This document shows, one piece after another, positions 2,893 to 19,663 of a DNA stretch of 46,627 bases. This DNA is from a virus. Its lineage: Duplodnaviria; Heunggongvirae; Uroviricota; Caudoviricetes. Each line of letters opens with the position of its first letter. Within the stretch, counting starts at the first letter, position 1. Location: positions 1-46,627 of IMG/VR virus record IMGVR_UViG_2541047706_000005. One strand, written 5' to 3'. The translations under genes were made by a program, and so were the position numbers. The notes beneath the pieces are model-generated. The model saw nothing but the letters and a program-made list of their open reading frames with translations. It searched no databases and was not told the DNA's origin.

Positions 2893-3050
2893 TTATCATC
2901 TCCATAAAACAAAACCCGCCGTAGCGAGTTCAGATAAAAGAAATCCCCGCGAGTGCGAGGATTGTTATTGTCTTTTCTTCGTGCATTTGTCGCACTTTCG
3001 GCACCATCCAGATAGGCACATCCGTCCGCAATTAACACATATAGGCCACA

Positions 3051-3329
3051 TCATTTTTCCTCTTTTGGTTTATGAATCTGAATGGTCATGCCGCTTTGAG
3101 TGGTGACTACAATGACAGAACCAGGCTGAAGGCTGTTAAGATTGAATGCTTCGTAAAACGAATCCAATGCCAGTGCTTTTTTATTCTTTCTGTTCCACCA
3201 ACGCCATCCCTTGCTACAGGCTACACTGACAATCCACTGTCCACTCCTGTAAGCCATATAAAACCAGATGAGCAAAACCTGAAGGAAGGCTATCCAGTCA
3301 ATAATTGTATATTTCGCGAAGGAGTCCAT
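3051..3329 (-). CDS. Small hypothetical protein with a hydrophobic segment
   Basis: Internal start MDSFAKYTIIDWIAFLQVLLIWFYMAY... overlapping the upstream stop (TAATG); RBS-like ggagg upstream. Confidence 0.45.
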   Translation of the reverse strand: MDSFAKYTIIDWIAFLQVLLIWFYMAYRSGQWIVSVACSKGWRWWNRKNKKALALDSFYEAFNLNSLQPGSVIVVTTQSGMTIQIHKPKEEK

Positions 3330-3976
3330 TACTTCACCTCCTGCGGCGGTTCTGGTAGCGGCATCCAGAACAAGGCGTTCCCTAACCACGATAAAGTGCC
3401 GTCGCTCAACTCCACGTATTCCCCTTGTACCTGTCCTGCCATATACTCGCCGTGCTTTGAATAAATTAAAATCCAATCATCTTGAGGGGGCATTCGCTCA
3501 CTACAGCTTATCCAACCATCCGGAGTTACCGGATAGTTGCCAGCGGCCTCGGGCATATCCGGACCTTTGCGAATAGCCTTTGCAAGCTCAACAGGGTCAT
3601 CGTAAAGCCAGTCGCCAGTTTGTGGGTGATTTGCTTCTGCAAGCTGCGCAGCCCATTCAAGACCATCTTTTTGACCTTGGAGATAATCAAGCGGCAACTC
3701 TTCATGATTACTTGCAGGTTCGGCACACTGAAGCATGGCGGCGCAGCAGGCGTTCCAGCCTTGAACCTTAGCTATTGCCACAACTGCATCGGTAAAGAAC
3801 ATTCTCGCGGTATCTGGCTCCGGAATTTCATCCGGCACATATGCAGGAGATGGCTTGTCAGCGAGCATTGACATCAACGCGCAGATGGTGTCCTCGCTGA
3901 TTTCAAACATACCACTGGCGTTCTGCGTCGAGGATTTAAGCTCTTCGATAATGCGCTCTTTCGTAAACTCAGCCAT
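3329..3976 (-). CDS. DUF551-like lambdoid accessory protein
   Basis: C-terminal segment (...DDWILIYSKHGEYMAGQV...WMPLPEPP) resembles the DUF551 family common in lambdoid early-left regions; start taken at internal MAEFTKER. Confidence 0.5.
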   Translation of the reverse strand: MAEFTKERIIEELKSSTQNASGMFEISEDTICALMSMLADKPSPAYVPDEIPEPDTARMFFTDAVVAIAKVQGWNACCAAMLQCAEPASNHEELPLDYLQGQKDGLEWAAQLAEANHPQTGDWLYDDPVELAKAIRKGPDMPEAAGNYPVTPDGWISCSERMPPQDDWILIYSKHGEYMAGQVQGEYVELSDGTLSWLGNALFWMPLPEPPQEVK

Positions 3977-3980
3977 ATCC

Positions 3981-4517
3981 CTACTTCCCCTTGATGCTGA
4001 CATTAACGCCAGCTTTGCGAATCTCATCGGCGCATCTGTTGATAATATTTCTGTGAAACTCACAAAAAATTTTCGCCGACTGCGGCCCTAATGGGTGAAC
4101 ATCTTGCGTACTCGGCAGCACAACCTCCCGCGCCTCCAGCTCAGAAATCCGCTTCTCTGCTGCTTCCAGCTCAACACGCAGCTTCCCTACCGTTAGCGCA
4201 ATATCCTCGTTCTCCTGGTCGCGGCGTTTGATGTATTGCTGGTTTCTTTCCCGTTCATCCAGCAGCGCCAGCACGGTAGCTGGATTGGCTGCGGCGATGA
4301 ATTCAGCATTGGCCTGCTGTTCTATTTGGAAATCTTCATCGAAACCGCTTTCAGGATGCGCTCCTTCAATTCTGCAAATGGGAATATATCCAGCAGCCTC
4401 GCGATGAATTAGTGCATCATCACCATCAAATCGGCCATCTCCATATTCGAGCGACCACTCGCCACACGTTGCTTTTTCTGCCTTAGCACGTAGTGCCTGA
4501 TAGTCAATCTTGCTCAC
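3981..4517 (-). CDS. Ead/Ea22-like protein
   Basis: 178-aa acidic coiled-coil-rich product in the position of lambda ea22; family assignment from memory. Confidence 0.5.
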   Translation of the reverse strand: MSKIDYQALRAKAEKATCGEWSLEYGDGRFDGDDALIHREAAGYIPICRIEGAHPESGFDEDFQIEQQANAEFIAAANPATVLALLDERERNQQYIKRRDQENEDIALTVGKLRVELEAAEKRISELEAREVVLPSTQDVHPLGPQSAKIFCEFHRNIINRCADEIRKAGVNVSIKGK

Positions 4518-8007: not shown

Positions 8008-8631
8008 CTATGCGGACTCGGAAGGAAGTCCAATCATCTTATTCAAATCTTCTACCCGTAAAGCAGGAAGTGCTGTACTTGCTTTGTCTGCTTCTTTTGG
8101 TAGCAATTCTTTGCTTTCAGGCCAAACTTCAATAAGTCGCTTAACTGTTGTGACTGAGTTCAAAGCAGCCCATACATTTGATTCGATATCCTTTTTCTTG
8201 GCTTCAAGTTTTTGTTGCAATGCGCAGATTTCATCAAACCTTTTTGTTATTTCGTGTTCTGCATCAAACATGCATTTATCTTTGGTTGGAGTAGGGAGCA
8301 ATATATCTTCGCCGTTGCCGTCTTTCCCATATGAATGCCATCCAACCCTTCTGCCAGATACAGTCAGATAAATTGAAGTAGAACGAACATCGTATGAGTA
8401 AAATGAACATCCCATCTTTTCAAGTTCTTCACTTATAGCTACTAACCTGGATGATAACTGATCCACTTCCTCAGTTTTCTTTTTACCGCCAAACGCAATA
8501 ACTCTGGCGTCAAGTGCAAGCTGGTTCTTTAACTTTGTTACTTCTTCAAGTTCAGTGAAAACCCCAGACTTAATTAAAGCGTTACGAGCGATTTTCTCTT
8601 TCATTCTCGTAGTTAAGCGGATTGATGACAT
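8008..8631 (-). CDS. Hypothetical accessory protein (about 207 aa) immediately downstream of N
   Basis: ORF-track frame 8008..8691, start taken at internal MSSIRLTT; no recognisable family. Confidence 0.5.
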   Translation of the reverse strand: MSSIRLTTRMKEKIARNALIKSGVFTELEEVTKLKNQLALDARVIAFGGKKKTEEVDQLSSRLVAISEELEKMGCSFYSYDVRSTSIYLTVSGRRVGWHSYGKDGNGEDILLPTPTKDKCMFDAEHEITKRFDEICALQQKLEAKKKDIESNVWAALNSVTTVKRLIEVWPESKELLPKEADKASTALPALRVEDLNKMIGLPSESA

Positions 8632-8692
8632 ATTAATTCCTCTCAAATAAGTGGTTTGCTGCCTAATTTTATTTTCTGGCGACCAACACAAG

Positions 8693-9076
8693 TCATCTTG
8701 CTGTCAGTTGTTTGGATTTCCGGTATCCTGCCGCGTAAAGAGCTACGTTCGGAAGACATACACCAGTTTCTGGTTGCTTATGTCCAAACTCATTCGCGTA
8801 CACAATGGCCGCTCGCTCCAGATTGCGTCTGTATTCTTTCTGTTGCCAGATCACGTCCTGTGCCATGAACTTAATTGGCTTAGCGTCTTCTATGCGCTCA
8901 GGCGTTTCGTGAGTACCTTTAGCCTGAATCTGCGCTCTGCTTAGAGTAGGGCGTTGTAATACTTCTGAACTTATTGCTTCTTCGCGGGCCAGTACGCCGT
9001 TAGCTAATGCCTTTGCCTTTAAACGCTCACGACGACGAGAACGTGAATTGCCTTTGAACTGAGTTCTGCGTGTCAT
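8693..9076 (-). CDS. N-type transcription antiterminator, P22 gene-24-like
   Basis: Arg-rich N-terminal motif (RRTQFKGNSRSRRRERLKAKA) and C-terminus LPNVALYAAGYRKSKQLTAR resembling P22 gp24; first gene after pL. Confidence 0.8.
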   Translation of the reverse strand: MTRRTQFKGNSRSRRRERLKAKALANGVLAREEAISSEVLQRPTLSRAQIQAKGTHETPERIEDAKPIKFMAQDVIWQQKEYRRNLERAAIVYANEFGHKQPETGVCLPNVALYAAGYRKSKQLTAR

Positions 9077-9745: not shown

Positions 9746-10648
9746 TTATGACTCACTTTGTTCTGAGAAGGGGAATGAAGACAGAACAAGAACCTGTCGA
9801 TTTGTCTTATACATGTATTCATTAATGACGTTGTGCAGATTTTTTAACGCCATGCTAAAATCTTTGTCGTATGTAAAGTCTTCTACTTTAATTCTTAAGT
9901 CATTGATAAGAGTATTTATTCCTATCGTTCTTCCGTGAGAATGCCACTTTCCGTTGTCACTAAGAGCGGTAGCGATCATTTTAGCTCTTGCTTCTTTTTC
10001 CCTCTTGGAAACTAGCTTTCCTCGTTTTGTGTTACCTTGATGAACCGTCCACTCTCTGAATTTATACTCTACAAGCCACTTCTTAAGCAAGTCTATTGAT
10101 AGCTCTCTGGCTTGCTCGTATCTCCTTAAGTGCGCAAGATCTAACTGACTAAGCATCATTAGTTCAGCTTGGGTAATGGTTCCTTCTCTGGATTTAGTAA
10201 TCATTTCTTCAACTTTATCAAGGTATCCCAAAGCAGGAACCCATTTACCGTCAGAGGATTGCACTTGAGGGTCAATGGGGCCTAATGAAGAAGCATAGTT
10301 CATGTAAATTTTATCTCCAGACATACACCATATTGTGCCTGCCGACATGGCCATATCTGGAATGATAAAATATACCTCTTGATAGAAATGCCTTGTAATT
10401 TCTACCATTTTTTCCACAGACTCAACAGAGCCACCATTTGTATTGAGTATAATAACTAGAAATCTATTGGTACGACTGTTAGCCATCTCCCCAATAGCCT
10501 CAAGTTTTGGTTGGTAAACTTCTTTTGACCATGGAAAGATACCACCGTAGTACGCTATGACGTCGCAGCTTGGGAAAAAGTTATTTTTAAATTGCTCTAA
10601 CTGCCAAGAAATGTATGTTTCTAGTGTTGAATCAAGATTTTGGCTCAT
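9746..10648 (-). CDS. ClpP-fold serine-peptidase-like protein (S49/SDH-type) in the rexAB position
   Basis: ILNTNGGSVES and PDMAMSAGTIWCMSGDKIYMNYASSLGPIDPQ align by eye with ClpP INSPGG and QAASMGA...PNSRVMIHQP blocks; directly downstream of cI on the same strand. Confidence 0.7.
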   Translation of the reverse strand: MSQNLDSTLETYISWQLEQFKNNFFPSCDVIAYYGGIFPWSKEVYQPKLEAIGEMANSRTNRFLVIILNTNGGSVESVEKMVEITRHFYQEVYFIIPDMAMSAGTIWCMSGDKIYMNYASSLGPIDPQVQSSDGKWVPALGYLDKVEEMITKSREGTITQAELMMLSQLDLAHLRRYEQARELSIDLLKKWLVEYKFREWTVHQGNTKRGKLVSKREKEARAKMIATALSDNGKWHSHGRTIGINTLINDLRIKVEDFTYDKDFSMALKNLHNVINEYMYKTNRQVLVLSSFPFSEQSES

Positions 10649-12202: not shown

Positions 12203-13048
12203 ATGACAAATACAGCAAAAATACTCAACTTCGGCAGAGGTAACTTTGCCGAACAGGAGCTAAGAGTGGCTGATATCGATGATGGTTACACCAGATTCGC
12301 TAACGAGCTGCTGGAAGCTATCGCAAGTGCCGATTTAACCGCTCGCCAGTTGAAAGTTATGCTGGCCTACGTCCGGAAAACATATGGCTTCAATAAGAAA
12401 ACAGATCGAATAGCCGATGAGCAAATTGCTCAGTTAACAGGACTGTCAAGACAGAATGTTAACAAGGCTAAAAAAGAACTGATTTCAATGAATTGCCTGT
12501 TTATGGATGGAAATAAAATCGGTGTAAACAGGGAGGTATCTGCGTGGCAATTCAGCAAGTGTCTCCAAGTTAGCAACTTTGTCTCGAAGTTAGAGACAAA
12601 AAATGTCTCCAAATTAGAGACACTCAATGTCTCGAAGTTAGAGACACACAAAAGACATTCTTTAAAGACAAAAGAAAATATTAATAAACCCCCTATATCC
12701 CCCAAAAAAGTTTCTCAGAAGTTCGACCCGCTAGAAACAGAGTTGCCTGATTGGTTATCAGCAGAAACATGGTTGTCGTGGGTTACCTATCGCAAGGAGA
12801 TAGGTAAGTCGATCAAGTCTAAGCAAAGTGTCACTCAGGCTATCAACGTTCTAAGCAGAAGTCTGGAGAAGGGATATACACCTGAAGAAATTATAAACCA
12901 GAGCATCGCCAGTGGTTGGCAGGGGATTTTTGAACCCAAGACTCCAAAGGGGAAATCTCAACCGAGGCCGCAGCAGCGAGCTATGCAGGAAAACTTTGCC
13001 GCCAAAGATTACGGGCAAACTGAAATGCCTTCATGGGCGCAGGAGTGA
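12203..13048 (+). CDS. O: Replication initiator, lambda O-like
   Basis: N-terminus MTNTAKILNFGRGNFAEQE... like lambda O; iterons embedded mid-gene. Confidence 0.85.
   Translation: MTNTAKILNFGRGNFAEQELRVADIDDGYTRFANELLEAIASADLTARQLKVMLAYVRKTYGFNKKTDRIADEQIAQLTGLSRQNVNKAKKELISMNCLFMDGNKIGVNREVSAWQFSKCLQVSNFVSKLETKNVSKLETLNVSKLETHKRHSLKTKENINKPPISPKKVSQKFDPLETELPDWLSAETWLSWVTYRKEIGKSIKSKQSVTQAINVLSRSLEKGYTPEEIINQSIASGWQGIFEPKTPKGKSQPRPQQRAMQENFAAKDYGQTEMPSWAQE
12560..12650 (+). repeat. Origin iterons (four approximately 19-bp palindromic repeats) with adjacent A/T-rich tract
   Basis: Repeated tgtctc-N7-gagaca units inside the O gene followed by an AT-rich stretch. Confidence 0.8.
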
Positions 13049-13050
13049 AT

Positions 13051-13944
13051 ATGAATACGACAAATGGTTACAATCTGGCACTGCAAAGGCAACTTGTAGA
13101 CTCAAAAATCAATGACATTTCTGATCTGAAACAGAAACTTGAGTTTAGCAAAATTGGATCAGCATCAGATGGAATGTCAGTTACCAGCACAGTGGAAGAG
13201 TGCGAGAAACACGGTAAATATACTTCCTATGAGAAATATCTGACCATCTCAGGAAAAAGAATTACTTCAAGTAAATCTGAGTGCCCACAGTGCCTTGAGG
13301 AGAAAATTCGTAAGAAAGAGATTGAACGTGAGCAGGCAGAACAAAGAGCAAGACAATCAAAAATTGAATATTTGTTGAATTCTCTCAATATTCCAGAGAG
13401 GTTCAAAAATTGCACTCTTCAGAATTATGAGCCTGTTAACGATGATGCAAAGCGAGTTCTTAAGGTTTGCCAGGCATATGCCAGTAAGTGGCCTGAACGC
13501 CTTCAAAAAGGTGGCGGACTGGTCATGTGTGGTAAGCCTGGAACTGGAAAGAACCACCTTGCACTGGCTATCGCTAGGCACGCCATTATCGAGCATCAAA
13601 GCTCTGTGATATTTACCACTGCGTTGAAAATTGCCAGAGAGTACAAATCAACATGGTCTAAGGCCGCAACCAGAACTGAAGAAGAAGTCATTAGGCAATT
13701 TACGCATCCTGACTTGTTAATAATCGATGAGGTTGGCGTGCAGTTCGGCAGTGATGCTGAAAAGCTAATCATGTTCGAAATTATCAACACCAGATATGAA
13801 TACATGAAGCCAACAATCCTGATTAGTAATCAGAGCAAAGATGAACTTTCGGCATTCATTGGTGAGCGTGTTATTGACAGGATGAATGATGGCGGCGGGT
13901 GCACTCTTGCGTTTACATGGGATAGTTACAGGAGCAGATCGTGA
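13051..13944 (+). CDS. DnaC-like helicase loader (AAA+ ATPase)
   Basis: Walker A GKPGTGKNHLA and Walker B LLIIDEVG; Cys-rich N-terminal region; occupies the lambda P position. Confidence 0.8.
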   Translation: MNTTNGYNLALQRQLVDSKINDISDLKQKLEFSKIGSASDGMSVTSTVEECEKHGKYTSYEKYLTISGKRITSSKSECPQCLEEKIRKKEIEREQAEQRARQSKIEYLLNSLNIPERFKNCTLQNYEPVNDDAKRVLKVCQAYASKWPERLQKGGGLVMCGKPGTGKNHLALAIARHAIIEHQSSVIFTTALKIAREYKSTWSKAATRTEEEVIRQFTHPDLLIIDEVGVQFGSDAEKLIMFEIINTRYEYMKPTILISNQSKDELSAFIGERVIDRMNDGGGCTLAFTWDSYRSRS

Positions 13945-14946: not shown

Positions 14947-15470
14947 CTATCAAATCAAATACGCCAGCACACGACAAGGACTGCTGGCAAACGCCGCTTT
15001 GGCTTTTTGATGCACTGGATATTGAGTTTGGATTCTGGCTGGATTCGGCAGCGAGCGACAAAAATGCTCTGTGTGCTCACTGGCTAACTGAGGCCGACGA
15101 CGCGCTCAATTCTGAGTGGGTAAGCCACGGTGCAATCTGGAATAACCCACCGTACAGCAATATCAGGCCGTGGGTGGAAAAAGCCGCTGAGCAGTGCATA
15201 CAACAGCGACAGACGGTAGTGATGCTTGTGCCAGAGGATATGTCAGTCGGATGGTTCAGCAAGGCTCTGGAGAGTGTCGACGAAGTTCGCATTATCACTG
15301 ATGGACGGATTAATTTTATCGAACCATCGACAGGGCTGGAGAAGAAGGGAAACAGCAAAGGCTCCATGCTGCTGATTTGGCGACCGTTCATCAGTCCTCG
15401 ACGGATGTTTACTACCGTATCCAAAGCGGCATTGATGGCGATCGGGCAGAGCGTCAGGAGGGCGGCATGA
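14943..15470 (+). CDS. Phage DNA N6-adenine methyltransferase (Dam-like)
   Basis: NPPY motif (IWNNPPYS); start taken at ATG overlapping ninB stop; occupies the ninC position. Confidence 0.8.
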
Positions 15471-15643
15471 GACGACAGCGACGAAGTATCACCGACATCA
15501 TCTGCGAAAACTGCAAATACCTTCCAACGAAACGCTCCAGAAATAAACGCAAGCCAATCCCAAAAGAATCTGACGTAAAAACCTTCAACTACACGGCTCA
15601 CCTGTGGGATATCCGGTGGCTAAGACATCGTGCGAGGAAATAA
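15467..15643 (+). CDS. ninE: NinE
   Basis: [47 protein letters not shown]... recognised as lambda NinE-like. Confidence 0.8.
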
Positions 15644-15649
15644 GGGGAT

Positions 15650-15768
15650 TGACGCGATGATTTATCCGGGGCTATATTCCCAGCACGCCAGCAAAATCTG
15701 GCGTCGGGATTGGCGTCCCGGATAGAGACCGCGACAGACACACGCCGCGAGCGTGTTTTTTTATTGTC
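15650..15768 (+). ncRNA. Candidate small structured RNA (promoter-like element, three hairpins, terminator)
   Basis: TTGACG-17-CTATAT, then stems acgccag/ctggcgt and cggga/tcccg, ending in acacgc-cgcga-gcgtgt plus T7; no ORF. Confidence 0.3.
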
Positions 15769-15923
15769 GAATGCACGCGCACATCTGAATTATGGTGGGC
15801 TGTGTGGGGGCGGAGAGATCCGCGCCGGTCGGTTTCCCGGTTACGCCAACCCTGCACAGTTCACCACCAGACGATTGGCGTCGTCGGTGGTGAGTTATTT
15901 AGAAACCACTCGAGGGCGTCATT

Positions 15924-16604
15924 ATGACAACTCAAATCTCTGTTGAAACTCTCTCCCCGATCACCCATAACCAGATTCCTGTTATCACCACCGAACTTTT
16001 GGCGCAGCTTTATGACACAGAAATTCTGAATATCCAGGTTAACTTCACCAGAAATAAAGAGCGTTTTGTCGAAGGAAAGCACTTTTTTAAAGCAGTGGGT
16101 GAAGAATTAAAAAATTTGCGACTTACTTTAAGTAAGTCACAAAATCCCATCTCTCCCAAAACCCGCTCCCTCATCCTCTGGACAGAACGCGGCGCAGCCC
16201 GTCACGCCAAAATGCTCGAAACCGATCAGGCGTGGGATGTGTTCGAAAAACTGGAAGACTGCTATTTCAGCCAGTGCGAGAAAAATACTGGCAAACAAGA
16301 GAAGAAGCTCAACGGGCTTTCCGCAAAAGAAACAGACAGCCTTGTATGGCTATGGGATTATGCCAACCGCTCACAGGCATTATTCCGCGAACTGTATCCG
16401 GCGCTAAAACAAATTCAATCGAACTATTCCGGCAGATGCTACGACTACGGTCATGAGTTCTCGTATGTTATTGGAATGGCGAGAGACGTTTTAATCAATC
16501 ACACACGAGATGTTGATATTAATGAGCCAGACGGACCAACGAATCTTTCCGCATGGGTAAGGCTTAAGAACAAAGAATTACCTCCTTCACTGCATCGCTA
16601 CTGA
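15924..16604 (+). CDS. ORF6N-domain protein (antirepressor/Roi-like)
   Basis: N-terminal [38 protein letters not shown] resembles the ORF6N domain as remembered. Confidence 0.6.
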
Positions 16605-16631
16605 CAATTGACAACTTAACAAACCCAGCTT

Positions 16632-16652
16632 CGGCTGGGTTTTTTATTGGTG
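16632..16652 (+). terminator. Rho-independent terminator
   Basis: cccagc-ttcg-gctggg followed by T-run. Confidence 0.6.
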
Positions 16653-16672
16653 AATTTTCAATATGAGAGGAC

Positions 16673-17401
16673 ATGACAATGAACGAGCTGATAAATAGCA
16701 ACGTCATCAAAATGACTAGCATTGAAATCGCTGAGCTTACAGGTAAGCGTCATGACAATGTGAAACGAACCATCGAAACGCTGGCTAAAAATGGTGTTAT
16801 CCGGCTTCCTCAAATTGAGGATTGTGGAAGAATCAATGGGTTAGGATTAAATCAAAGTTTTTGTGTGTATGTATTCGAAGGCGAACAAGGAAAGCGAGAC
16901 AGTATTGTCGTTGTAGCCCAGTTGTCGCCAGAGTTCACCGCTCGCCTTGTTGACCGCTGGCGAGAGCTTGAAGAAGCTGCGGTTAATATCCCCAAAACGC
17001 TACCGGAAGCGTTGCGCCTTGCTGCTGATCTTGCTGAGCAGAAAATGCAGCTGGAAAACCAGCTCGCAATTGCCGCACCTAAAGTTGAGTTTGCCGATCG
17101 CGTTGGCGAGGCCAGCGGAATTTTGATTGGAAACTTTGCAAAGGTTGTCGGTATTGGCCAAAACAAACTGTTTGCATGGATGCGCGATCACAAAATCCTT
17201 ATTGCTTCAGGTTCCCGGCGCAATGTGCCAATGCAGGAATATATGGATCGCGGCTATTTCACAGTGAAAGAAACAGCGGTCAACACAAATCACGGAATAC
17301 AGATATCGTTCACCACAAAAATCACCGGGCGTGGTCAACAGTGGCTGACCAGAAAGCTGCTCGATAACGGAATGCTGAAAGTAACAGGGGAGGCTGCTTA
17401 A
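16673..17401 (+). CDS. Rha-family regulatory protein with KilA-C-type antirepressor domain
   Basis: N-terminal SIEIAELTGKRHDNVKRTIETL (Rha-like) plus C-terminal domain typical of phage antirepressors. Confidence 0.6.
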   Translation: MTMNELINSNVIKMTSIEIAELTGKRHDNVKRTIETLAKNGVIRLPQIEDCGRINGLGLNQSFCVYVFEGEQGKRDSIVVVAQLSPEFTARLVDRWRELEEAAVNIPKTLPEALRLAADLAEQKMQLENQLAIAAPKVEFADRVGEASGILIGNFAKVVGIGQNKLFAWMRDHKILIASGSRRNVPMQEYMDRGYFTVKETAVNTNHGIQISFTTKITGRGQQWLTRKLLDNGMLKVTGEAA

Positions 17402-17691
17402 TGGCTAACCTACGCAAAGAAGCGCGCGGCAGAGAATGCCAGGTACGTATTTACGGCATATGCAATGACAATCCTGAAACTACAGTTCTGGCACATTACC
17501 GGATGGCTGGAATTTGCGGAACTGGAATGAAGCCTGACGACCTGATCGGCGCATGGGCTTGTAGCGCGTGTCACGATGAAATCGACCGGCGTACAATGAT
17601 TCTCGACAACAAAGACGCCAGACTTTACCACCTCGAAGGCGTGATCAGGACGCAGGCGATACTGCTGAAGGAGGGGAAGATTAAGTCATGA
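17401..17691 (+). CDS. DUF1364/YbcO-like Cys-rich protein
   Basis: 96 aa with conserved Cys/His pattern; immediately upstream of rusA as in other lambdoid prophages. Confidence 0.55.
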   Translation: MANLRKEARGRECQVRIYGICNDNPETTVLAHYRMAGICGTGMKPDDLIGAWACSACHDEIDRRTMILDNKDARLYHLEGVIRTQAILLKEGKIKS

Positions 17692-18083
17692 AAACCTACC
17701 GAATAAAATTGCCGTGGCCTCCTTCAAACAACCGATATTGGCGACACTCAAGAGGGACCCACTACATCAGCGACTGGGGGAAGAGATACCGAAAAGAAGT
17801 AATCGAATTAATTCAGCAACAACAGCTAGACATCAAAATCACACCTCGCATCAGAATAACCATCCACGCAGCACCTCCCGATAACCGCAAACGAGATTTG
17901 GACAATCTGCCCAAAGCCGTTTTTGACGCACTCACCAGTGCGGGCTTCTGGCTGGATGACGGTCAGATAGACGATATGCGCGTCAAGCGCTATCAGGCGA
18001 TTAAAGGTGGAATGCTTGTGTTGGTTGTGACTGAAACATGCGGGAGTTTGCCAATGATTACAGAGCTACTGGAGGCCGCATGA
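17688..18083 (+). CDS. rusA: RusA Holliday-junction resolvase
   Basis: 131-aa product with the RusA acidic catalytic region (DxDN). Confidence 0.85.
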   Translation: MKTYRIKLPWPPSNNRYWRHSRGTHYISDWGKRYRKEVIELIQQQQLDIKITPRIRITIHAAPPDNRKRDLDNLPKAVFDALTSAGFWLDDGQIDDMRVKRYQAIKGGMLVLVVTETCGSLPMITELLEAA

Positions 18084-18286: not shown

Positions 18287-18935
18287 TGGCAGCAAATACC
18301 GAAATATTTGGGTAGTTGGCGATCTGCACGGATGCTACACGAACCTGATGAACAAACTGGATACGATTGGATTCGACAACAAAAAAGACCTGCTTATCTC
18401 GGTGGGCGATTTGGTCGATCGCGGTACAGAGAACGTCGAATGCCTGGAATTAATCACATTCCCCTGGTTCAGAGCTGTACGTGGAAACCATGAACACATG
18501 ATGATTGATGGCTTATCAGAGCGTGGAAACGTCAATCACTGGCTGCTTAATGGCGGTGGCTGGTTCTTTAATCTCGATTACGACAAAGAAATTCTGGCTA
18601 AAGCTCTTGCCCATAAAGCAGAAGAACTTCCGTTAATCATCGAACTGGTGAGCAAAGGTAAAAAATATGTCATTTGCCACGCCGATTATCCTTGTGATGA
18701 ATACGAGTTTGGAAAGCCAGTTGATCATCAGCAGGTAATCTGGAACCGCGAACGAATCGGCAACTCACAAAACGGGATCGTGAAAGAAATTAAAGGCGCG
18801 GACACGTTCATCTTTGGTCATACGCCAGCAGTGAAACCACTCAAATTTGCCAACCAGATGTATATCGATACCGGCGCAGTGTTCTGCGGAAACCTCACAT
18901 TGATTCAGGTACAGGGAGAAGGCGCGTGGGCATAA
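18264..18935 (+). CDS. ninI: Lambda-type Ser/Thr protein phosphatase (NinI)
   Basis: GDLHG, GDLVDRG and GNHE metallophosphatase motifs; matches lambda phosphatase as remembered. Confidence 0.9.
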
Positions 18936-19444
18936 GAGAACTAAACCTCACCAAAGAACAGCATGAGTGGCTGAATGGCTGGCTTGAACTGTGGGGCGCA
19001 TGGGTTTATTCAGGTCGTCTGGAAAAGCGCATGAGCAGCGTAATAGCGAAGTTCATGGAGAGCGTAGAGCCGGGAAGAGTTATGACAAGGCCAATGTGTA
19101 ATGATGATGATGGAATGTTGATTTCTCAGGTCGTCGATTCCGTCATGTATATTGACAAGAAAGCCTTTGGCATCCTCCTAAGCTACTACGCTCATGGTTC
19201 ATCTAAGCGAGCAATTGCATCCTACTATCACGCGACTGCAAAGCCACGCAAGATGTGTGGACGTGGTGGCGAGGGATGGAGAAAACCTTCACTGGCAACC
19301 TGTAGAAACGAAATTGACGACATCCTGAAAGCGTCATTATTTGTTTTATACCAGCCAATGCAAAATGCTTTTAAAATGCGTAAACGTGTTGAGAAAGTTA
19401 AGCATGTTGCTGTTAAAAGCCTTGACATGCAATTATCCATTTAG
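18926..19444 (+). CDS. Late-gene antiterminator Q (Q82/Q21 type, not lambda Q)
   Basis: WLELWGAW N-terminal motif typical of the Q82/Q21 family; position just before pR'. Confidence 0.65.
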
Positions 19445-19507: not shown

Positions 19508-19582
19508 GGGTCAGTCGTATAAAGGTCATTACGGAAGGCTGTTAACCTTCTTATCGTGGTTCGAGTCCACGCTGTCCCGCCA
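19508..19582 (+). tRNA. tRNA-like gene, anticodon GTT (Asn) by hand folding; non-canonical acceptor/D-arm
   Basis: T-arm cgtgg-ttcgagt-ccacg, anticodon stem gaagg/ccttc with loop ctGTTaa, 3' gcca; one acceptor mismatch. Confidence 0.5.
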
Positions 19583-19587
19583 AACAT

Positions 19588-19663
19588 GCTGTTTTAGCTC
19601 CAATGGTAGAGCGGTCGCCTTGTAAGCGAATGGGTAGCGGTTCAAGTCCGTTAAACAGCACCA
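19588..19663 (+). tRNA. tRNA-like gene, anticodon TGT (Thr) by hand folding
   Basis: Acceptor gctgttt/aaacagc, D-arm gctc-caatggta-gagc, loop ctTGTaa, T-arm agcgg-ttcaagt-ccgtt, 3' ACCA. Confidence 0.6.

Follow-up and report, generated by a model that had tools for sequence, protein, structure and literature searches.

Why would a phage with lambda-type immunity carry two antirepressor-type genes in its nin region, and are these genes free cargo or a regulated unit? The question is raised by a 46,627-nucleotide (nt) stretch of DNA from a tailed virus of the class Caudoviricetes (IMG/VR record IMGVR_UViG_2541047706_000005; hereafter the window), in which two open reading frames (ORFs), ORF1 and ORF2, lie between ninE and the ybcO and rusA genes. 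An earlier note, made from the sequence alone, had described the pair (15924-17401) as two antirepressor-type morons, i.e., genes for an ORF6N-domain protein and a Rha/KilA-C protein. It overlooked the decisive feature of the locus, an IsrK/C4 riboregulatory leader in the gap between ninE and ORF1. This leader argues for an antirepressor operon of the P1 immI type under post-transcriptional control and against cargo that is free of regulation. We consider it likely that positions 15644-17400 form a mosaic, P1-immI-type, IsrK/C4-controlled cassette of two genes, ant (ORF1) and roi (ORF2), inserted between ninE and ybcO. All features of the cassette lie on the plus strand.

RNA leader upstream of ant

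The 280-nt gap between ninE and ORF1 contains three Rfam RNA matches (isrK, c4-a1b1, and C4). An IsrK-like small RNA (15685..15761; 77.3 bits; E value, 3e-16) overlaps a c4-a1b1 motif (RF03163; 15672-15724; 50.7 bits; E value, 2.5e-11) and is followed by a C4-type antisense RNA (RF01695; 15788..15871; E value, 3e-12), which scored 66.7 bits against a gathering score of 45 bits. Two short sites in the IsrK-like RNA are complementary to the C4 RNA: b1 (TTGGCG; 15710-15715), in the loop of hairpin 2, to the C4 strand b', and a1 (GAGACCG; 15725-15731) to the C4 loop a'. The IsrK-like RNA ends in an intrinsic terminator (stem, 15740-15756, followed by seven T residues). Regarding the C4 RNA, the predicted fold (minimum free energy, -44.5 kcal/mol; z score, -4.2) reproduced the family structure, with loop a' (TCGGTTTC; 15829-15836) and single strand b' (CGCCAA; 15844-15849) both exposed and with a long tRNA-like closing stem that ends in CACCACCA.

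The same two C4 segments are complementary to a target region in the leader of ORF1 (15875..15916). Here, b2 (TTGGCGT; 15875-15881) is a perfect complement of the cognate b', and a2 (GAAACC; 15902-15907) is a perfect complement of the cognate a' and lies 5' of the Shine-Dalgarno (SD) sequence of ORF1 (GAGGG; 15912-15916), 7 nt before the ATG at 15924. Folded by itself, this leader sequesters the SD sequence (-23 kcal/mol; z score, -4.2).

A sigma-70-type promoter (TTGACG, 18-nt spacer, TATATT; 15649..15678; 10 of 12 consensus matches) was predicted to end 7 nt upstream of the 5' end of the IsrK-like RNA. The consensus scan alone was not significant for promoters (2 sites found against 3.1 expected); we base the call on the conservation of the hexamers in related loci, where the spacer varies, and on homology to PisrK of Gifsy-1. 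The window leader aligns end to end, promoter hexamers included, with the Gifsy-1 isrK-anrP locus and the P1 immI leader. Positions 15649-15678 thus appear to be the equivalent of PisrK and of the P1 immI leader promoter, and judging from these homologues the promoter would be active.

The leader also holds an upstream ORF (uORF; 15792-15893; 33 amino acids [aa]) that starts at a conserved AUG at the 5' end of C4 and is the counterpart of orf45 of Gifsy-1. A 2-nt length difference shifts its frame relative to orf45, and it ends 30 nt before ORF1. Translational coupling of the orf45 type was rejected for ORF1 because the uORF shows no coupling, and the same holds for 92 of 93 loci. The length of the uORF ranged from 14 to 358 aa across these loci; this variability, together with the coupling in a single locus, suggests that conservation acts on the RNA and not on the encoded protein.

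Co-variation of the pairing sites

In each of the nine related loci fetched (i.e., the PEC41 prophage, Stx2 II, PhiR12_4, vB_EcoS_P27, Min27, PA2, phiV10, a Klebsiella phage, and phiP27) and in Gifsy-1, an antirepressor-like gene stands behind an isrK and C4 pair. The a and b sites vary between these nine phages, and they change together in IsrK, in C4, and in the downstream leader. For example, the b site and its complement read TTGGCG/CGCCAA in the window, TTTGCA/TGCAAA in PhiR12_4, and TTAGCA/TGCTAA in Min27.

We extended the comparison by a pattern scan of genome representatives of 185k species (one genome per species). A fixed-spacing C4 pattern yielded 2 loci only in IMG/VR, and a variable-gap pattern on the genome contigs worked, giving 100 usable C4 elements, among which 77 combinations of a' and b' were distinct. 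Co-variation was measured as the longest perfect complement of cognate and of non-cognate loops. Against the downstream leader, cognate loops matched over 7.98 nt for a' (a2; non-cognate, 4.48 nt) and 7.06 nt for b' (b2; non-cognate, 4.24 nt). Against the upstream region, the corresponding values were 7.57 nt for a' (a1; non-cognate, 4.55 nt) and 6.89 nt for b' (b1; non-cognate, 4.37 nt). The co-variation held when the test was repeated without a 45-member cluster of loci with cargos of about 150 aa. Furthermore, the geometry was constant in the 100 loci: a2 follows b2 at a distance of about 30 nt, the start codon follows 7 to 16 nt after a2, and a2 abuts or overlaps the SD sequence, with overlap in most family members.

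The sites fall into classes. In a cross-matrix of C4 elements and targets, scores of at least 6 on both sites were confined to the diagonal and PEC41, which is of the window's class, with few exceptions (i.e., C4 of the window, PEC41, and P27 with the phiV10 target, and C4 of phiV10 with the P27 target). The a'/b' class of the window is that of Stx2 II and PEC41 and differs from those of Min27, P27, and PhiR12_4. Single sites are more widely shared, as the window has the b site of P27 and phiV10 and the a site of PA2.

These results bear on the reading of the earlier note, namely, that the locus consists of two independent morons, unregulated accessory antirepressor genes with their own transcription units that are aimed at other prophages or host regulators and not at the phage's own cycle. 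ORF1 lies behind a conserved, co-varying IsrK/C4 region, which argues that the gene is tightly regulated and not free-running. If the RNA control works as in its homologues, Ant would be off in a repressed prophage, the opposite of moron-style expression.

The first ORFs 3' of the C4 elements (n = 64) matched, in Pfam, Bro-N (9), ORF6N (8), P22_AR_C (6), Rha (3), and P22_AR_N (1). About 45 of the 100 elements, found across Enterobacterales, precede a conserved protein of about 150 aa with no Pfam match (consensus, MAT..T..H.L...PF...TDFT.LA..CE), and these show the same a/b co-variation; as a guess, they may be P4-like satellite CI-RNA loci. The leader also occurs outside the nin region. The PA2 copy (2987-3899) is found in the early-left region, next to HigA-like antitoxin genes and before an antirepressor-like gene, and the copy in the podovirus phiV10 (2995-3812) is found between tail genes, before the gene for a Bro-N protein. 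Hence, the leader behaves as a control module that travels between loci.

The Ant and Roi proteins

ORF1 (15924..16604; 226 aa) encodes an ORF6N domain (Pfam E value, 3e-20) followed by a P22_AR_C domain (2e-27), the latter an addition to the domains that the earlier note had named and that a hidden Markov model check now supports. Residues 1 to 125 are 67% identical to AnrP of Gifsy-1, which also matches ORF6N, and the first 27 residues are identical. The last 104 aa are 89% identical to Ant of P22. By these alignments, ORF1 is a mosaic of an AnrP-like ORF6N N-terminal domain fused to a P22 Ant C-terminal domain. It is 76 to 85% identical to Ant of Shiga toxin (Stx) phages and 100% identical to a deposited Escherichia coli HVH 33 protein named "antirepressor protein ant."

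ORF2 was called at 16679..17401 (240 aa) or 16673..17401 (242 aa). The second ATG, 16679, is most likely the true start, given the proper spacing of its SD sequence (GAGAGGA; 16664-16670) and the length of the homologues (nearly all of the 120 closest are 240 aa). The protein combines an N-terminal Phage_pRha domain (Pfam E value, 4e-8) with a C-terminal ANT/KilAC domain (3e-33). Residues 51 to 236 are 55% identical to P1 Ant1 over 189 aa (E value, 5e-68), and the whole is 81 to 93% identical to Roi of Stx phages. In PHROGs, ORF1 and ORF2 alike are labeled anti-repressor. The antirepressor kinship that had been claimed is thus borne out, and by this homology the two proteins may bind repressors.

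We weighed whether they might instead be Roi/Rha-type proteins that bind DNA to regulate lytic development or host takeover (with a link to IHF-dependent growth), bind no repressor, and have only the RNA leader in common with antirepressor operons. The domain classes ORF6N, Bro-N, and KilA-N are predicted to bind DNA, and the N terminus of ORF2 is of the Rha type. Roi of Stx phages has the N-terminal 125 aa in common with Roi of phage HK022, which is implicated in lytic growth (PMC3430580). This account is at odds with three homologies: the C-terminal domain of ORF1 is that of P22 Ant, a proven antirepressor; its N-terminal domain matches AnrP, an inducer of Gifsy-1; and the resemblance of ORF2 to P1 Ant1 takes in its C-terminal 186 aa. 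We judge it unlikely for the pair as a whole, although Roi by itself may, by analogy with HK022, be a regulator of lytic growth instead of an antirepressor.

The domains also prompted comparison with defense systems, as the cassette might be a prophage-expressed antiphage or superinfection-exclusion function. KilAC and Bro-type proteins occur in defense contexts, and PADLOC gave a weak match of the ORF6N domain of ORF1 to the candidate defense family PDC-S05 (E value, 4e-7). This match was confined to the common ORF6N domain, and ORF2 had no PADLOC match. Furthermore, the predicted RNA control would keep Ant off in the lysogen, and deletion of the ant gene of the Stx phage Phi24B had no effect on superinfection (PMC3064807). 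We regard a defense function as very improbable.

Sequence searches of the PDB with ORF1, ORF2, and the Bro-N cargo of phiV10 gave no meaningful match. AlphaFold2 models of ORF1 and ORF2, built from shallow alignments (homologues 85 to 97% identical), had mean predicted local distance difference test scores of 45.6 and 43.1, respectively, too poor for use.

Terminators and gene junctions

The earlier note had given each gene its own terminator. This holds for ORF1, which is followed by a hairpin (16621-16642) with a 9-bp GC-rich stem and a run of six T residues (terminator, 16621..16650; -15.9 kcal/mol; z score, -4.5). The terminator sequence is unchanged in six related loci, and its hairpin core ACCCAGCTTCGGCTGGGT and T6 run recur unchanged in t_ant, the terminator annotated 3' of ant in P22.

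For ORF2, the claim fails. Its stop codon overlaps the start codon of ybcO (TAATG; 17399-17403), and we found no terminator at this junction, which had no significant fold (z score, -0.3) and no T run. We rejected a second terminator 3' of ORF2; the hairpin at 17101-17117 is weak and falls within the gene. No promoter of its own was found for ORF2 either.

Some Stx phages, vB_EcoS_P27 (4023-4424) among them, have an additional gene of 133 aa between ant and roi; it stands directly 3' of the conserved terminator, and its SD sequence is the one used by roi elsewhere. This position at the junction of the terminator and the roi SD sequence marks the ant-roi spot as a recombination junction.

Flanks and insertion of the cassette

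The flanks of the block agree with the position given in the earlier note. Pfam identified NinB, Dam, and NinE upstream and YbcO and RusA downstream. The plus-strand genes ninE (15467..15643; E value, 7e-44) and ybcO (17401..17691; E value, 4e-44) form the left and right flanks, respectively, and RusA (17688-18083) is encoded 3' of YbcO. In the aligned DLP12 prophage, ninE and ybcO overlap directly, without an intervening block, and the similarity to the window picks up again exactly at the ybcO ATG. Therefore, 15644-17400 is a 1.76-kb insertion, bounded on the right by the start codon of ybcO.

How far does this insertion speak for two independent morons? One mark of a moron, a site of insertion between genes that are neighbors in related phages, is seen for 15644-17400 in the DLP12 comparison. 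The other mark, a promoter and a terminator for each gene, was found only for the leader with ORF1, which has a promoter-like site upstream and a terminator downstream; ORF2 has neither, and its stop overlaps the next gene. Moron-like anatomy is thus confined to the leader with ORF1 and its terminator. On the side of the moron reading, antirepressors that act in trans and that their own phage can do without are known, e.g., FsoA of Fels-1 (PMC3121763). The G+C content of the block is only slightly below that of the flanks; the difference is too small to be diagnostic, and foreign origin was not accepted on this basis. The signals lacking in ORF2, the small G+C difference, the regulated leader described above, and the contribution of the Phi24B homologue of ORF1 to induction of its own phage (PMC3064807) make two free-running morons improbable, and we prefer the IsrK/C4-controlled cassette.

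The 2.4-kb region around the block had partial or full matches in 520 phage records and in 2,604 of 5,426 complete E. coli genomes, and at least 80% of the region was present in 167 genomes.

Comparison with known systems

The Ant-Roi pair is well known, already annotated, and widespread in Stx and lambdoid prophages. In the Stx phages Phi24B, Min27, Stx2 II, vB_EcoS_P27, and 2851, the order is that of the window (ninE, leader, ant, terminator, roi, and the next nin gene), with an identical terminator and with isrK and C4 present. The window differs in having ybcO and rusA downstream instead of ninG, in its lambda cI/cro immunity, and in its virion genes, which resemble those of Klebsiella phage Chronis.

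Compared with the immI region of P1 and P7 (a1b1-c4-a2b2-icd-ant1/ant2), the window has an aligned promoter and keeps the order and the spacing of a1/b1, C4, and a2/b2, a2 being placed at the ribosome binding site of the first ORF. P1 contains c4-a1b1 and C4 but no isrK match at the gathering threshold. A homologue of P1 Ant1 is also present in the window but as the second gene (ORF2), not the first. Unlike P1, the window lacks icd, so that the first ORF after a2 is the 226-aa ORF6N/P22_AR_C Ant and not P1 Ant; no C1 operator was seen in the window cassette, which sits in a lambdoid nin region and would also be read from PR. In P1-type immI, C4 is cut out of the transcript by RNase P processing, and the translational block is accompanied by Rho-dependent polarity. 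By analogy, C4 may be processed in the window as well, the closing stem ending in CACCACCA being the sole visible sign. Pairing of the P1 c4 RNA around the ribosome binding site blocks ant expression (PMC12197685; PMC8201110).

The isrK-orf45-anrP-isrJ locus of Gifsy-1 is nearly co-linear with the window leader, with isrK, c4-a1b1, and C4 (STnc1160), an IsrK that has its own terminator, and an AnrP-type (ORF6N) antirepressor. In Gifsy-1, the orf45 stop overlaps the antirepressor start, an arrangement neither conserved nor coupled in the window. Nor does the window have an isrJ match at the gathering threshold (Gifsy-1 isrJ, 100 bits). Its ORF1 has the extra P22_AR_C domain and is followed by a second gene, roi, and the cassette lies upstream of Q in the nin region, whereas the Gifsy-1 locus lies downstream of antQ.

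The Gifsy-1 locus is also the source of much of the functional background. PisrK transcribes through the IsrK terminator into anrP, giving a message that is not translated; IsrK supplied in trans raises anrP translation 139-fold; and AnrP induces Gifsy-1 (PMC4825925). The IsrK mutations G28A and G31A, which we place in the b1 loop, and the orf45 mutations C162U and C159U, which fall in b' by our numbering, each raise basal anrP translation (PMC4825925). In Gifsy-1, orf45 runs through C4, and short mutant IsrK RNAs lose trans activation (PMC4825925). Gifsy-1 lysogens transcribe both IsrK and STnc1160, the C4 region, at a high level (PMC7067206).

With the immI region of P22 (mnt-arc-sar-ant), the window has the C-terminal domain of Ant and the terminator hairpin in common. 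The N-terminal domain is P22_AR_N in P22 and ORF6N in the window, control is by Arc, Mnt, and sar in P22 and, as predicted, by IsrK/C4 in the window, and the genome positions differ.

Proposed working of the cassette

On the model of these homologues, the constitutive promoter at 15649-15678 would give, in a lysogen, mainly a short IsrK-like RNA ending at its own terminator, and read-through transcripts would contain the C4 RNA and the ant message. The a' loop and b' strand of C4 would pair with a2 and b2, 5' of the SD sequence of ORF1, and block translation of Ant, and the terminator after ORF1 would limit transcription into roi. The leader thus probably keeps the first gene, ant, untranslated in the lysogen. 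As the same two sites (a1 and b1) are present in the IsrK-like RNA, it could pair with C4 and oppose the block. Upon induction, N-antiterminated transcription from PR would pass ninE and both terminators, and the resulting flood of target sites would titrate C4, so that Ant and Roi could be made. Ant is expected to bind the repressor protein non-covalently, speeding derepression of its own phage, and may likewise derepress co-resident lambdoid prophages. Roi, a relative of P1 Ant, would regulate lytic growth as a DNA-binding protein of the Rha/KilAC type.

Several observations weigh against this scheme. First, a2 ends 4 nt before the SD sequence without overlapping it, and the a'-a2 match in the window's class spans only 6 nt; the translational block may therefore be indirect, e.g., through stabilization of the fold that sequesters the SD sequence. 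Second, the uORF is not coupled to ORF1, coupling being present in 1 of 93 loci, and icd or orf45 is needed for ant expression in P1 and Gifsy-1; details of the mechanism may thus differ from both models. Third, lambda CI is cleavable through RecA, so that Ant would not be essential for induction. Fourth, near-identical Ant and Roi accompany different repressors in PEC41 and in Stx phages (the PEC41 repressor differs from that of the window in its N-terminal region and is about 90% identical in its C-terminal domain), which implies either a broad specificity of these proteins or a target other than CI. Finally, HK022 Roi has been described as a DNA-binding protein affecting lytic growth and not as an antirepressor (PMC3430580).

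The third point touches the earlier claim that the genes are not required for induction in a phage with lambda immunity. The immunity assignment stands: the 237-aa repressor and the 66-aa Cro of the window are 2 and 1 residues off what we take to be the lambda CI and Cro sequences. That Ant is non-essential beside a cleavable repressor also stands. In Phi24B, however, deletion of the homologous nin-region ant gene reduced pR' late expression after norfloxacin to 27 to 31% of the wild-type level (PMC3064807); therefore, the gene contributes to the induction of its own phage despite the cleavable repressor.

Action on the repressors of other prophages is plausible by analogy. FsoA, dispensable for Fels-1 with its own cleavable repressor, inactivates the Gifsy-2 repressor (PMC3121763), and P22 Ant is cited, in a passage of PMC3064807, as acting also on lambda CI.

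Genome context of the window

Outside the cassette, similarities within the window point to different sources. Virion genes at 21900-42500 are about 95% identical to those of the Klebsiella phage vB_Kpn_Chronis, and the lambda cI/cro genes are combined with an O-like initiator and, in the place of lambda P, an IstB/DnaC-type ATPase (12203-13944). By these comparisons, the genome is strongly mosaic.

Immediately downstream of the lambda-type cI gene, at the place of rexA/rexB in lambda, the minus strand (9746-10648) encodes a 299-aa ClpP-like SDH-type serine protease/NfeD-like protein (Pfam PF01972; E value, 1.5e-10). It had no PADLOC match and may be an exclusion or accessory gene, other than rex, that the prophage expresses. 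Another minus-strand gene (8008-8691) encodes a 226-aa protein with nucleotide-modification-associated domain 5 (Nmad5; E value, 5e-72) and adjoins the N antiterminator gene (8693-9076). Just 3' of the Q antiterminator gene (18926-19444) are two tRNA genes on the plus strand (19508-19660), in a position that is occupied in the PEC41 prophage by tRNA-Asn and tRNA-Thr.

Implications for co-resident prophages

The window locus itself is a typical member of a known system. What the analysis brings out is that the common nin-region Ant-Roi pair has a P1-type two-site IsrK/C4 switch and that the sites of this switch fall into discrete specificity classes. It is possible, though we would sooner expect otherwise, that the IsrK/C4 leader forms a second, combinatorial RNA-based immunity code, written in sites a and b, that links co-resident lambdoid and Stx prophages via cross-talk of Ant. 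If so, the C4 RNA of a resident prophage would silence Ant of a phage that matches it in a/b class, whether incoming or co-resident, and an IsrK decoy or an induced burst of target transcripts could free Ant in prophages of that class. A broad-range Ant would then derepress heteroimmune neighbors, and a cross-talk network within the polylysogen would set which Stx and lambdoid prophages fire together. The specificity classes yield a testable prediction of which co-resident prophages are able to cross-regulate. Antirepressor cassettes influence how fast, and with which partners, lambdoid prophages fire, and in Stx phages this bears on toxin output.

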